NCBI GenBank assembly: GCA_048882505.1
Contig: JBHLRO010000016.1
Span: 60,001 to 92,000, forward strand
Source: Candidatus Thorarchaeota archaeon
Lineage (GTDB): Archaea > Asgardarchaeota > Heimdallarchaeia > Hodarchaeales > Hodarchaeaceae
DNA length: 32,000 nucleotides
Direction: 5' to 3'
Below the pieces are notes generated by a model. It saw nothing but the letters and a program-made list of their open reading frames with translations. It did no database searches and was not told where the DNA came from. A program made the position numbers and the translations under genes. Below, one piece after another: positions 4,083 through 15,511 of the stretch; the stretch's first letter is position 1; the number at the start of each line of letters is the position of its first letter.

Positions 4083-5069
4083 TTAGAAATAATGCGTATT
4101 TCTATTTACAGATTGAGTTTCTACATTAAGAATTTGTCCTGCAATTGCTTTACTCAAATGAGGTGGAACACTCTCTCCTACCTGGTTAAAACAGGAGTCC
4201 AAATTTCCATAGAAACAAAAATCATCGGGATAGCTCATCAAACGAGCATGTTCGCGTACTGTACAAAGACGGGGTAAAAATGGATGGATAAAACGGGATT
4301 TTCCCATCACCGTAGGGCTAGGTTGGTCTAATAATAGGCGAATATAGTTTTTCAGATAGGTTCTATCCTGACTTCCCCTAAAATACACCAGAGCTCCGCC
4401 AGGAGGTGTTTTAGATATCTTACGTTCGAATGATGAAGGTGGAGGGACAAAATCATGGTTCGGGATTCTTCCTGTGGATTGGGGAAGTGACCAAAAAGCA
4501 TTGTTTACAGTTGAAACCTTGAAGCTCCTTTTGGCGGAAGGCGATCTGATCGGAACATTTGAAATAAAAACACGTTTTCGGTAACTCGGAATTCCAAATT
4601 CAACTGCCTCCAAAACATTGAATAAGATCTCATAACCCGAATGACCGAATTCATGTCGAATTAGGCTTTGCATCTCAAGTGAAGCGACATTAACAACGTT
4701 TTCTATTATAAAGAACGATGGGCTCAGATCCGAGATTATTCGGATGGCGTGTAGCATCAAACGACCACCTTCATCATTATACAGTTGGTTATAAGCTGAC
4801 TGTTTTCGGTCAGGATTGGCAGCGGAGAACGACTCGCATGGAGGAGAGGCTATTACAATATCAGGAGACTTGCCGTTTAATAGCTCTAGGATCTCTAGAG
4901 AGTGAAGTTCTTGAACATCGCTTTCGATGACTTCTTCGACAGGAATGTTTGCCTGATAGGTCTCCAATGCTCGATAATCATGATCAATGGCGATTTTGAT
5001 TTTCAATTTGGAGATTCCCTGTAGGAAACCGAATGAAAAGCCTCCGCATCCTGAAAAAAGATCAATCAA
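4083..5069 (-). CDS. C5-cytosine methyltransferase (Dcm-like), orphan
   Basis: Motif I DLFSGCGG, motif IV SPPC, motif VI ENV, motif VIII RKRVF, motifs IX/X TVREHARLMSYPD..QVGESVPP. TTG start overlaps the stop of the upstream gene. Confidence 0.92.
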   Translation of the reverse strand: MIDLFSGCGGFSFGFLQGISKLKIKIAIDHDYRALETYQANIPVEEVIESDVQELHSLEILELLNGKSPDIVIASPPCESFSAANPDRKQSAYNQLYNDEGGRLMLHAIRIISDLSPSFFIIENVVNVASLEMQSLIRHEFGHSGYEILFNVLEAVEFGIPSYRKRVFISNVPIRSPSAKRSFKVSTVNNAFWSLPQSTGRIPNHDFVPPPSSFERKISKTPPGGALVYFRGSQDRTYLKNYIRLLLDQPSPTVMGKSRFIHPFLPRLCTVREHARLMSYPDDFCFYGNLDSCFNQVGESVPPHLSKAIAGQILNVETQSVNRNTHYF

Positions 5070-5568
5070 ATCGACCTTCTTCGCTCTCCTGTTTATCCAA
5101 TAATCTTACTTTCTGAACTAATCCGTTTAAAAAAAGTGCCGTGAGCGCGATAGGATTAATATTAGAGCTGATCTCTTTCATATAAATACAGTCTCCTAAA
5201 TCTAATTCCCTTCGGGTAAGACCCGGCGAAGAACCACCAACAGCTACTAAAACCTTTTTAGTTTTTAAATTCGTGATAATCTGGTCATAAGGTACTGGTA
5301 TCTGACTATAACGAGGAGCTACAAGTAAATAAACAATCTGGGGATCCAATGTTTCGATGATATCCTCGATACTTGAGAAAAAAAGTAGGTTTCCTCCAGC
5401 AGAAAACACCGTTTTTTGGGCCTCTGGGATTCCAATTGAGGCAGCTGCCGCAGTAATTTTGCTGTAGACTATATTTTTGCAGGATAACCCAATACATGTG
5501 TCGGCAAAGTATTTGACCGCCCTACGACTATTTGAATTATGAAATGCCATGAACAAGTGCTTCAACAT
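5062..5568 (-). CDS. COG4080-type SpoU/SPOUT-like protein (historically annotated RecB-family nuclease)
   Basis: FHN..S......F.....GL....IV.SK...AAA..GIPEA.K pattern, and a C-terminal GGSSPGLTRRELDLG knot-like segment. GGAGG RBS upstream. Confidence 0.8.
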   Translation of the reverse strand: MLKHLFMAFHNSNSRRAVKYFADTCIGLSCKNIVYSKITAAAASIGIPEAQKTVFSAGGNLLFFSSIEDIIETLDPQIVYLLVAPRYSQIPVPYDQIITNLKTKKVLVAVGGSSPGLTRRELDLGDCIYMKEISSNINPIALTALFLNGLVQKVRLLDKQESEEGRFD

Positions 5569-5699: not shown

Positions 5700-5813
5700 G
5701 TCGGGATATCCAAGCCTGGTATGGAGCCAGCCTGCTAAGCTGGTGAGTTTAAATTCAATATGACTAATCGTATAGGAGAACATCTCTCGGGGGTTCAAAT
5801 CCCCCTCCCGACG
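5700..5813 (+). tRNA. tRNA-Ser(GCT) with a 31-nt intron in the variable arm; mature 83 nt, no encoded CCA
   Basis: Acceptor GTCGGGA/TCCCGAC, discriminator G, D-arm TCCA-AGCCTGGTA-TGGA, anticodon arm CCAGC-CT GCT AA-GCTGG (anticodon 5734-5736), T-arm GGGGG-TTCAAAT-CCCCC. Confidence 0.95.
5753..5783 (+). other. tRNA intron (variable arm) with strict bulge-helix-bulge motif
   Basis: Central helix GTTT(5747-50)/GAAC(5778-81), 3-nt bulges AAA and ATC, paired flanks on both sides. Removal gives the variable arm T-GAGT-TTA-ACTC-TC. Confidence 0.88.
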
Positions 5814-5914
5814 TCAATCATTTCAAATGTTCAAGCACCGATTTTTCATACTAAATCAATGACTGAAGAATGACAAGACGGGCCCGATGAGATTCGAACT
5901 CATGACCCCTGCGT

Positions 5915-5943
5915 ATCTCCAAGGCCAGATTTTCCGGCCATTT
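5915..5943 (-). other. tRNA-Arg intron at canonical 37/38 (29 nt)
   Basis: BHB geometry with central helix CTGC/GGAG (one G:G mismatch) and internal hairpin AA(T)GGCCGGA-AAA-TCTGGCCTT. Confidence 0.85.
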
Positions 5944-5960
5944 CCGCAGCGCAGTACTCT

Positions 5961-6007
5961 AACTGGGAATAAATACGGACGTACTGAAAAAATCACGCCG
6001 CATAAAT
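5961..6007 (-). other. tRNA-Arg intron in the D-loop at 20a/21 (47 nt)
   Basis: Central helix CTGG/CCAG, bulges AT|A and TT|A, inner stem ATGCGG/CCGTAT. Relaxed (BHL-like) motif. Removal restores the D-loop AGCCTGGATA. Confidence 0.82.
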
Positions 6008-6058
6008 ATCCAGGCTAAGCCACGGGCCCAGGTTCTGGGTATCACAAACTGGGATCAG

Positions 6059-6117: not shown

Positions 6118-7440
6118 TCAGCTTAGATCATTTACAATTCCGACTGCTATTGTTTGCCCCGAGTATCTGAGGATAAGCCGCCCAAGTTCGGGAAAATCTG
6201 CAAATTTCTCAACCACTAGGGGATTTTCCAAGATGAGGTCGACATCTACGAGTTCGTGTTCAAAAGCGATTGTTAACCTCCCTTCAAATTCGCGCGCGAA
6301 ATTTTCATGTTGTGGATTTTTCCTAAGAATTTCATGAATCTTCGAGATCTGAGCAGGAGCATATGATGCGCCGCAATGCATGACTACAGAGGAGCCTGGA
6401 ACAAAAGTACCTTCTAAAATGAGCAATCGTGCGCGTACAGTATATTTCAAAGAATAATTTTGCCCTTGAGGGGCAAGAACTATCCCCTCTTCCAATTTAT
6501 CCTTGTCTGTGTATCTCAAAAGAATGGAACCATGCTCGCCTGGATGGAGAGAATCGGCTTTCGCAGTTTGGATCCAAATCTCCTTGATTTCATCATTCTC
6601 TCCAGATGGTAGGATCATTACGGGATCACCATTGCTTAACGTTGCGCCAATCATTTTTCCCATTAACAACGTGCCAAAACCATGACGTTCGTCAAGATCA
6701 TACACGATAAATCTCCCAGTGGAATTACTATTTGCAGCAATCCCTTCCAACGAGTTTAAGGCCTCGATCAGGGTAGGCCCCTTATACCATTGAAGGTTAT
6801 CTGATGGTTGAGTTAAATTGTCTCCTGAGAACCCACTGATGGGGACGATGGGGATCCTATCCAAATATTTTGTCCAAGGGGATTGAATTTCCAGTATAAA
6901 CTGCTTTATCTTTGTTGCTGCGTCTGTGAAGAGTTCTTCACGAAAATCCACGAGATCCATTTTGTTTATTGCCACAATCAACTGGCTTATCCCTAATACC
7001 GATGCCAAGATAGCGTGTTCACGAGTTTGGCCCCCGGGACTTTGATCCTCTCCTATCTTCAAACCAGATTTCAGGTCGTTCGGAACTGCGCTAACTACCA
7101 ATACACAAGCATCAGCTTGAACCGCGCCTCGAATCATATTTTTCACGAAATCACGATGCCCAGGGGCATCAATGAGCATAAATCTGCGTTCCGAAGTTTC
7201 AAAGGGGAAAAAAGCGATATCTGACGTAATCCCACGTTGTCTTTCTTCAGGAAGAGAATCTAGGACGTATGCCCATTGCCACGAGTCCATATGATATTGA
7301 GTGGCTTCTTCTTTCAGTTTTTCCACCAATCTAGCATCTATGACGCCAATTTGAGCTAACATATGACCTAGTGTTGTGGATTTTCCATGATCTACATGGC
7401 CAATCCAAACCAAAGAAATGGTGGGCTTTTTTTTTACCAT
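6118..7440 (-). CDS. EF-1alpha-family translational GTPase paralog (HBS1/eRF3-like candidate)
   Basis: G1 GHVDHGKST, G2 RGITSDI, G3 DAPGH, GQTREH, G4 NKMD, G5 SGFSG and a three-domain layout. Domain II is diverged (GRFIVYDLDERHGFGTLLMGKM). Confidence 0.85.
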   Translation of the reverse strand: MVKKKPTISLVWIGHVDHGKSTTLGHMLAQIGVIDARLVEKLKEEATQYHMDSWQWAYVLDSLPEERQRGITSDIAFFPFETSERRFMLIDAPGHRDFVKNMIRGAVQADACVLVVSAVPNDLKSGLKIGEDQSPGGQTREHAILASVLGISQLIVAINKMDLVDFREELFTDAATKIKQFILEIQSPWTKYLDRIPIVPISGFSGDNLTQPSDNLQWYKGPTLIEALNSLEGIAANSNSTGRFIVYDLDERHGFGTLLMGKMIGATLSNGDPVMILPSGENDEIKEIWIQTAKADSLHPGEHGSILLRYTDKDKLEEGIVLAPQGQNYSLKYTVRARLLILEGTFVPGSSVVMHCGASYAPAQISKIHEILRKNPQHENFAREFEGRLTIAFEHELVDVDLILENPLVVEKFADFPELGRLILRYSGQTIAVGIVNDLS

Positions 7441-7534: not shown

Positions 7535-9064
7535 TCAGGAGGTGTATTTTCCTCTCTCTATTTTCTGTACTACGCCCACAGCAACGGTTTTTCCCGAGTC
7601 TCTTAAGGCAAAACGACCTAATGCAGGCGATTTTGCCAATGGTTCAACCACAAGTGGACTCAATGGAGTCATCCATATCATTCCTCGCTGCTGAGGAAGG
7701 AGCTGATCCGCTTCTTGGATTTGTGTCACACGACAGGCGACTTGAGCGGTGCCACAATGCACGACAGGAGAATAATTTGTATGTATTCCCCACGCAACTT
7801 CCCCTTTCTTCTTCGCTTTTCCAAGTCCCCGAACAACAAGGACAAGAGACAAAAATCCGTCAACATTGGGTCTTAAAGCTTGCGCTGGGTCATTAGGATC
7901 ACTAAGTACTGCACCACGAATTATGTCCTTGGCTCCAACATTCTTAGCTTTGATGCTAAAGCCAATGTTGTCACCAGGAATGGCCTGGGGAAGAGTCTTA
8001 TGAAATTCCTCGATAGTTTTAACGGAGATAGGTACTGGTTCTATCGACTGTTTTGTTGGTGAAACAACCATTTCTGTGTTTGGTTTTAAGACTCCACTCG
8101 AGACACGCCCAGTAAGAACCGTACCAACGCCACTTATGTTAAGAGTCTGCTGGATTGGTAATCTAACAGGCTGTTTCATCAAAGCTTCTTTTCTTACGGC
8201 AGGAGACTCTAGGAGATCAAGAGCATCCAATAATGCGGGGCCTTCATACCAAGATAACGCATCGAAACCCGCCTTAACATCCTCGATTTCCTTGTCAAGA
8301 GAAGCTATAAATTCCGCATCTCCACTTCCAGCCTTGGCAGCAGCAACATGGCCTTCTAGGTTTTTGAGTGTAGCTTCTTTCGAAAGGAGATTAACCCCAA
8401 CCAAACCGCTAGTAGGAACATAATTGATTGCGTCTAGGTAGCGTTCTTTGTTTTCGATCTGTAGGGCACCCATTAATGTGGAAAAAGTTTGATGGATCGC
8501 AGTTTTGATCTGTTTAAACCTTTCTTGATCCCAATTAACATCATCCATCTTGTTAATTGCAACTACTATGTTGGTCACTCCAAGGGAGGTGAGAAGGAGC
8601 ATATGCTCGGTAGTCATGCCAATAACGTTAGCGTATTTACCAGTTGCCTCTCCAGTTCTTTTTGTACCATCCTCAAATTCCCCTTTCCGGGCTGATACGA
8701 CCAGGATAGCAGCATCTGCTTGGGATGCACCTGTAATCATGTTCTTAATAAAGTCACTATGGCCTGGCGCATCGATGAGATTGTAAACGTATTTCTTGGT
8801 CTTGAATTCCTGGAAAGAGATGTTAATCGTGAGGCCCCGTTCCCGTTCATCCATCAGAGGATCCAAAATCCAGGCATACGACCAACTTGCCATTCCTTGG
8901 GTTCGACTATCCTTGTAGTATCTTTCTGCGATCCGCCAAGGTTGTCTTTTCTTTTTGGGATCATGGATCTGACCGAGTAAGAACAACATGTGGCCCAGAC
9001 CAGTTGATTTTCCATGGTCGACGTGTCCTGTGACCACCAAATTCATTCTTTCGAGATCTGCCAT
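7535..9064 (-). CDS. tuf: Elongation factor 1-alpha, divergent, with insertions (likely the elongation-competent copy)
   Basis: G1 GHVDHGKST, G2 RERGLTI, G3 DAPGH, FIKNMITGASQADAAILVVSA, G4 NKMD. Conserved domain II (PVRLPIQ..ISGVGTV.TGRV, PGDNIGF) and domain III (LGRFALRDSGKTVAVG). GGTGA RBS. Confidence 0.85.
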   Translation of the reverse strand: MADLERMNLVVTGHVDHGKSTGLGHMLFLLGQIHDPKKKRQPWRIAERYYKDSRTQGMASWSYAWILDPLMDERERGLTINISFQEFKTKKYVYNLIDAPGHSDFIKNMITGASQADAAILVVSARKGEFEDGTKRTGEATGKYANVIGMTTEHMLLLTSLGVTNIVVAINKMDDVNWDQERFKQIKTAIHQTFSTLMGALQIENKERYLDAINYVPTSGLVGVNLLSKEATLKNLEGHVAAAKAGSGDAEFIASLDKEIEDVKAGFDALSWYEGPALLDALDLLESPAVRKEALMKQPVRLPIQQTLNISGVGTVLTGRVSSGVLKPNTEMVVSPTKQSIEPVPISVKTIEEFHKTLPQAIPGDNIGFSIKAKNVGAKDIIRGAVLSDPNDPAQALRPNVDGFLSLVLVVRGLGKAKKKGEVAWGIHTNYSPVVHCGTAQVACRVTQIQEADQLLPQQRGMIWMTPLSPLVVEPLAKSPALGRFALRDSGKTVAVGVVQKIERGKYTS

Positions 9065-15406: not shown

Positions 15407-15511
15407 GGGCCCATGGCTTAGTCTAACGGGTTCGAGAACCCTTAGGAGAAGCCTGGTTAAAGCGCTCGGCTGATAACCGAGAGATCCCCGGTTCAAATCC
15501 GGGTGGGCCCA
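15407..15511 (+). tRNA. tRNA-Ile(GAT) with a 30-nt D-loop intron; mature 75 nt
   Basis: Acceptor GGGCCCA/TGGGCCC, D-stem GCTT/AAGC, anticodon arm CTCGG-CT GAT AA-CCGAG (anticodon 15472-15474), T-arm CCCGG-TTCAAAT-CCGGG, discriminator A. Confidence 0.95.
15422..15451 (+). other. tRNA-Ile intron in the D-loop (best fit 15/16)
   Basis: Hairpin CTAA(C)GGGTT...AACCCTTAG. Central helix GCTT/GAGA (3 of 4 pairs), bulges AG|T and AG|C. Removal restores the D-loop AGCCTGGTTA. Junction ambiguous by 1-2 nt. Confidence 0.8.

Follow-up and report, generated by a model that had tools for sequence, protein, structure and literature searches.

A predicted bulge–helix–bulge intron in the long variable arm of tRNA-Ser(GCU) from a Heimdall-group Asgard archaeon

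The archaeal DNA analysed here, a 32,000-nt window whose positions are used throughout, carries what is very probably a single-copy tRNA-Ser(GCU) gene with a predicted 31-nt bulge–helix–bulge (BHB) intron atop its long variable arm, in a Heimdall-group member of the Asgard archaea. The Asgard archaea are the closest prokaryotic relatives of eukaryotes, and seryl-tRNA synthetase recognizes its tRNA chiefly by the long variable arm. Variable-region introns of Crenarchaeota and non-canonical Asgard tRNA introns have already been published; hence, we regard this as a new example rather than a new mechanism, and our understanding of the splicing of these introns stays as it was. Its particular features are its place within a class II tRNA's long arm, the strict form of the motif, and the six intron states found at one locus within one genus. 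As an instance of a BHB that is built on such an arm, it is clean and strict in its motif, and the single locus in six states, together with a 75%-identical relative that keeps the intron, constitutes a natural series for the gain and loss of archaeal tRNA introns.

The tRNA gene and its bulge–helix–bulge motif

The gene occupies 5700–5813 on the forward strand as a 114-nt precursor body that does not encode the CCA end, and is identified by a match over the full length of the Rfam tRNA model RF00005 (53.1 bits, E 7e-9) and by its paired cloverleaf stems. These are a 7-bp acceptor stem (5700–5706/5806–5812), a D stem (5709–5712/5722–5725), a 5-bp anticodon stem (5727–5731/5739–5743) closing the 7-nt loop CTGCTAA, and a 5-bp T stem (5789–5793/5801–5805), with every pair in all four being standard. 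The anticodon GCT (5734–5736) lies at the center of the loop and reads the AGY serine codons, while the discriminator base is a G (G5813, i.e., G73). The Rfam alignment places a 43-nt insertion in the variable region, which spans 5744–5788 and thus measures 45 nt as compared to the 14 nt of intron-less orthologues. The proposal of the first-pass annotation that this is a tRNA-Ser(GCT) gene with a variable region of 45 rather than about 14 nt is therefore borne out by both the match and the measured lengths. The anticodon, the G at 5813 and the 14-nt variable region with a 4-bp stem that is left upon excision together mark the product as a class II tRNA-Ser. The assembly, which is 94.5% complete, yielded no second tRNA with the anticodon GCU; hence, the decoding of AGY codons should rest on this gene.

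The enlarged variable region harbors the motif that delimits the predicted intron. Archaeal BHB introns are cleaved after the second base of each bulge, and this cutting rule sets the 3′ border of exon 1 at 5752. Exon 1 (5700–5752, 53 nt) comprises the 5′ strand of the acceptor stem, the D and anticodon arms, and the 5′ strand, loop and first 3′-strand base of the variable arm; the predicted intron (5753–5783, 31 nt) is followed by exon 2 (5784–5813, 30 nt), which holds the remainder of the variable-stem 3′ strand, the T arm, the 3′ strand of the acceptor stem and G5813. The outer helix pairs 5745–5746 with 5785–5786 (G5745–C5786 and A5746–T5785) and also forms the base of the mature variable stem. 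The central helix joins 5747–5750 of the exon to the GAAC at 5778–5781 of the intron (G5747–C5781, T5748–A5780, T5749–A5779 and T5750–G5778). It is bracketed by the 5′ bulge AAA (5751–5753, predicted cut 5752/5753) and the 3′ bulge ATC (5782–5784, predicted cut 5783/5784), which lie on opposite strands exactly four pairs apart, i.e., in the strict hBHBh′ form. The inner helix (5754–5756/5775–5777, with T5754–A5777, T5755–G5776 and C5756–G5775) is extended in the minimum-free-energy fold by an A·A mismatch (5757/5774) and then a 6-bp hairpin (5758–5763/5768–5773) with the loop CTAA. The segment thereby displays the full motif of a BHB tRNA intron, namely a central 4-bp helix, two 3-nt bulges, and flanking helices of 2 bp on the outer and 3(+6) bp on the inner side.

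The helix–bulge–helix–bulge–helix described at first pass (GA/TC, GTTT/GAAC and TTC/GGA with bulges AAA and ATC) consists, on inspection of each named pair, of standard or G–U pairs throughout. Likewise, cutting after the second bulge base removes 5753–5783 and leaves a 4-bp variable arm, as had been claimed: the minimum-free-energy structure of the 83-nt product is a class II cloverleaf bearing the variable stem GAGT/ACTC and its loop TTA. The predicted junction A5752/C5784 comes after the first 3′-strand base of the mature variable stem, of whose four pairs two form only across it. The exact borders given earlier agree with the orthologues, but the junction sits where the loop meets the 3′ strand and not in mid-loop.

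How far the motif can be trusted by itself was gauged by shuffling, folding and scanning. Dinucleotide shuffles of the intron gave an equally strict motif at the same border in 90 of 20,000 cases, and shuffles of the whole variable region gave a strict 31-nt excision in 51 of 20,000. In terms of folding energy, the cloverleaf with the BHB reaches −36.2 kcal/mol, one with a mature-like stem −40.0 kcal/mol and the unconstrained fold −43.3 kcal/mol, so that other folds are preferred over the BHB; bulges of three bases always carry an energetic cost in such models. The unconstrained fold recovers the inner hairpin and misses the central helix, which means that free energy alone neither detects nor backs the BHB. 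Moreover, the outer helix of the BHB is only 2 bp long, and a loose scan admitting 2-bp flanks at any position returns three matches within 5700–5813 and many false ones in the orthologues, several per tRNA. Given these false matches, the motif alone is weak without comparative data, and we instead relied on borders constrained by comparison.

Orthologues across the genus and the choice of excision

A DNA search of 40 relatives showed that most genomes of the genus possess this tRNA. As in the window, the gene directly upstream of it codes for a DUF2122 protein in 14 other members of the genus, indicating that the tRNA-Ser(GCU) loci are orthologous. The minus-strand tRNA neighbor described below adjoins the gene only in the genome G016 and the metagenome contig L043; hence, synteny on the downstream side is unusable across the genus. 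Exon 1 up to 5745 is 98–100% identical to its orthologues, and 5786–5813 is identical (100%) in at least 15 genomes of the genus. Four species (G005, G006, G007 and G009) possess an uninterrupted 83-nt gene at the same locus, in which the 14-nt variable region is composed of a T, the stem GCTC/GAGC, a loop of TAT or TGC, and a terminal TC. In length and layout, the product expected from splicing (T, 4 bp, 3-nt loop, TC) matches these intron-less orthologues, and at stem pairs 2–4 both sides differ between the two with pairing kept.

The remaining orthologues bear introns at other positions: eight genomes have a 30-nt intron in the D-loop, three (G002, G014 and G017) have an 18-nt intron at position 37/38, G004 has both a D-loop and a 37/38 intron, and G010 has a 30-nt intron in the T-loop. 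The single orthologous locus (L003–L019 and the window) thus exists within one genus in six states, namely without an intron and with introns in the D-loop, at 37/38, at both of these, in the variable arm or in the T-loop. When applied to these orthologues, the cutting rule picks a border permitted by the comparison in each intron class and is therefore calibrated within the tRNA-Ser(GCU) family. Expressed as central/outer/inner pairs, the motif scores 4/5/3 for the T-loop intron of G010, 3/6/4 for the 37/38 introns of G002, G014 and G017, 3–4/1/0–4 for the D-loop introns and 4/2/3 for the variable-arm intron, which is among the cleanest of the locus. The D-loop introns show a relaxed motif with an outer helix of only 1 bp.

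These comparisons bear directly on the question of whether the intron might be cut at other sites via a relaxed motif, leaving a variable region of 15–16 rather than 14 nt. Candidates in which three of four central pairs form do exist, e.g., at gene positions 55–83 (3/3/2) and 54–82 (3/2/2), and variable-region insertions in Asgard archaea often lack the canonical motif (bioRxiv 10.64898/2026.10.13.758758, section 2.4). However, of the excisions confined to the variable region and leaving 11–21 nt there, solely that of 5753–5783 combines 4/4 central pairs with any flanking helix, and it has both; only this excision yields the 14-nt region with a 4-bp stem and a 3-nt loop that 13 of the 16 orthologues outside the G000/G016 lineage possess. 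Further, the bulges and the predicted cut sites are invariant in L043. We accordingly consider cutting at other sites highly improbable and retain 5753–5783 as the predicted intron.

The comparison with the other species also offers a glimpse of how the intron might have arisen. The 40 nt at 5746–5785 occupy the place of 9 nt in the other species, and all three distal stem pairs differ. A BLAST search of the genome for another copy of the intron with its flanks found none, so that transposition from another locus of the genome is not supported. Local duplication likewise lacks support, as the similarity between the intron and its own exons is not significant, with the best local alignment (GTATAGGAG versus GTATGGAG) being equalled or beaten in 1090 of 2000 shuffles. 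As a tentative and rather doubtful scenario, we suggest that the variable-arm state did not come from a clean insertion and that BHB introns could be acquired when a local segment is replaced by one carrying its own helix-forming flanks. Were this to be the case, segment replacement would offer a clue to the route by which archaeal introns are gained.

Conservation, splicing enzymes and the fate of the insert

The insert is shared by relatives under differing degrees of divergence. G016, a separate species representative, matches the window at 92% identity across 1634 nt; the 63-nt spacer directly downstream of the gene holds about ten differences, yet the tRNA gene itself is identical at 114 of 114 positions. 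The syntenic JGI contig L043, which was retrieved by a pattern scan of metagenome contigs, is 75% identical over 1733 nt with common neighboring genes, and its exons match at 82 of 83 positions, the sole change turning a G–C pair of the anticodon stem into G–U. It keeps the same 31-nt intron with five changes, of which four fall at helix positions, one in the hairpin loop (A5766 to G) and none in the bulges. C5781 to T changes a G–C pair of the central helix to G–U; T5755 to C and G5770 to A each convert a G–U pair to a Watson–Crick pair; and A5757 to T turns the A·A mismatch into a U–A pair, giving an inner helix of 10 continuous bp. No helix position is unpaired by these changes. They are all one-sided, i.e., transitions or mismatch repair, with no double compensatory change inside the intron between L043 and the window, and on this account the support from conservation is moderate. 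A pattern for the variable-arm insertion in this tRNA matched only G000 and G016 among 83 genomes of the class, a count that is a lower bound since the pattern needs an uninterrupted anticodon arm and specific bases; this suggests that the intron is confined to this lineage.

The genome codes for two EndA paralogues of 182 and 213 aa. The 182-aa protein bears the greatest similarity to the catalytic subunit of the Aeropyrum pernix two-subunit enzyme (3P1Z_B, E 1e-41); it retains the histidine that is an alanine in the entry 3AJV, and its alignment runs ungapped across the lysine-rich loop region around residues 30–45. The 213-aa protein aligns best with single-domain EndAs and has a gap at the position of the histidine of the Methanocaldococcus jannaschii EndA, as would fit a structural subunit. 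By similarity to the A. pernix EndA, we infer that the two together would form a two-subunit endonuclease of the broad-specificity type. Non-canonical introns are cut only by two-subunit and epsilon-type EndAs (PMC5829648). An RtcB ligase is also present (541 bits).

We propose the following course of processing. Before splicing, the variable stem's two basal pairs would serve as the outer helix, while the exonic GTTT would pair with the GAAC at the 3′ end of the intron as the 4-bp central helix, and the rest of the intron would fold into a 3+6-bp hairpin, such that the two 3-nt bulges are displayed on opposite strands. An EndA composed of α and β subunits would then cut after the second bulge base at 5752/5753 and 5783/5784, whereupon RtcB would join the exons and probably circularize the intron. 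The bulge bases A5752 and C5784 would thereby end up in the mature 4-bp stem GAGT/ACTC with the loop TTA, and the outcome would be an 83-nt class II tRNA with G73 that seryl-tRNA synthetase could recognize. The gene, its motif, the unique excision, the agreement with orthologues, the conservation and the enzyme genes are seen in the sequences, while cleavage and ligation in the cell, the order of these steps and any delay of charging until after splicing are inferred.

As the splicing is a prediction from sequence, one may ask if the 31 nt are instead never removed, the gene being either a decaying pseudogene or a tRNA with a giant 45-nt variable arm, the more so as ARAGORN in its default mode does not call it. 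Against this, it is the only GCU tRNA found, and its exons are preserved at 83 of 83 positions in G016 and 82 of 83 in L043 even though the flanks have diverged by 8% and 25%, respectively. The changes within the insert keep its pairing, and it bears exactly the signal recognized by the type of EndA that the genome appears to encode. To our knowledge, there is no functional tRNA with a 45-nt variable region, which counts further against retention of the insert. Accordingly, we attach very little probability to this reading and hold to a functional gene from which the intron is predicted to be removed.

It could also be asked if the insert is an artefact of assembly or binning, given that the DNA stems from a draft metagenome-assembled genome that comprises 83 contigs and has 3.7% contamination. 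However, the insert recurs in the G016 genome and in the JGI contig L043, and contigs from several public runs of three studies (X1–X4) contain the gene and its flanks with the insert; in these DNA contigs we found no intron-less allele, no joint skipping the insert and no variant within the gene. An artefact is therefore hardly credible. Two other identities for the element were discarded: a tRNA-Sec, as the anticodon is GCU and not UCA and the 7-bp acceptor and 5-bp T stems depart from the 13-bp geometry, and a self-splicing group I or II intron, as the insert has 31 nt versus hundreds of bases and Rfam gives only tRNA matches in the window.

Known variable-region introns, annotation and genome context

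The crenarchaeal variable-region introns named below interrupt class I tRNAs, in which the variable loop is short. In contrast, the intron described here lies inside the long-arm hairpin of a class II tRNA in an Asgard host, with the consequence that its BHB is built from the stem and loop of the arm itself. A variable-loop intron in Thermofilum pendens is on record through the citation of Kjems et al. 1989 in PMC3978253, a variable-region intron occurs in the tRNA-Lys of A. pernix, whose tRNA set has been confirmed experimentally (PMC4307357), and the intron position 45/46 is listed in a review (PMC4090602). Like the crenarchaeal variable-region BHB introns, which are handled by a broad-specificity two-subunit EndA, the present one is predicted to depend on such an enzyme; unlike the experimentally confirmed A. 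pernix cases, it is known from its sequence.

Asgard tRNA genes are heavily interrupted (Valentin-Alvarado et al. 2024, PMC11291895), and a census of them counts variable-region insertions and mentions those in class II variable arms without showing them (Goswami et al. 2026, bioRxiv 10.64898/2026.10.13.758758). According to the latter study, most Asgard genomes also have two EndA paralogues, and introns have been gained recently and more than once. The present case has in common with these published introns an Asgard host, a non-canonical position, two EndA paralogues, and a patchy spread among close relatives suggestive of recent gain. It differs in that both studies focus on Atabeyarchaeia and Jordiarchaeia, with several lineages of Heimdallarchaeia having fewer than one insertion per gene, and in that the canonical motif is found in only 21% of the variable-region insertions of the census that the annotator had missed, whereas the intron here is strict.

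Our metagenome scan further uncovered variable-arm inserts in the tRNA-Ser(GCU) of two more uncultured lineages, one comprising L045, L047, L050 and L053 and the other L044, L049, L051 and L052. The former group interrupts the same tRNA and arm as in the window with a 28-nt insert that has a strict 4/3/8 motif and leaves a 5-bp stem; here, too, the predicted junction comes after the first 3′-strand base of the variable stem. The hairpin of this insert varies between contigs. In the latter group, the motif is discernible in only two of the four sequences and is incomplete in each (4/1/3 and 4/2/0). In both groups, the intron sequences are unrelated to that of the window, the tRNA bodies differ and CCA is encoded. 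The initial characterization of variable-arm introns as rare and known mainly from Thermoproteales hence needs qualification on two counts: the host is a Heimdall-group Asgard archaeon, and, with the published crenarchaeal cases, the Asgard census and two more lineages from this work, the example is less exotic than that description implied.

The insert also poses a hazard for annotation. ARAGORN misses 5700–5813 by default and, when introns are allowed, miscalls it as a tRNA-SeC(tca) with a 22-nt intron. This call is an artefact caused by the insert and could mislead one into assuming selenocysteine decoding. With the gene apparently being the only AGY decoder, its omission or mislabelling skews the predicted tRNA set. 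Across the genome, 9 of the 27 Rfam tRNA matches are at least 94 nt long, indicating that the organism has many interrupted tRNA genes. Ordinary variable arms were seen in the three further class II tRNAs of the genome that were inspected, Leu(CAG), Leu(UAG) and Leu(CAA).

Another tRNA gene with interruptions is found on the opposite strand (5879–6029), 66 nt downstream of tRNA-Ser(GCU). It displays the acceptor stem GGGCCCG/CGGGCCC and the T arm ATGAG-TTCGAAT-CTCAT, apparently has the anticodon GCG (Arg), and has one insert each in the D-loop and the anticodon loop, both of which differ between G016 and the window. Rfam gives no match there even at E 1, and ARAGORN labels it a tRNA-Gln with a 1318-nt intron. 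Farther along, ARAGORN predicts a tRNA-Ile(GAT) at 15436–15511 on the forward strand, for which the Rfam match is partial (model positions 9–63, 33.8 bits) with the D-arm region aligning poorly. On the minus strand upstream of tRNA-Ser(GCU), a C-5 cytosine DNA methylase gene (4083–5069) overlaps by 8 nt the end of the DUF2122 (RecB-family nuclease) gene (5062–5568). Beyond this interrupted neighbor of tRNA-Ser(GCU), and also on the minus strand, are two adjacent genes for GTPases of the EF-Tu/EF1A family (6118–7440 and 7535–9064) that code for proteins of 440 and 509 aa with the Pfam domains GTP_EFTU and GTP-eEF1A_C.
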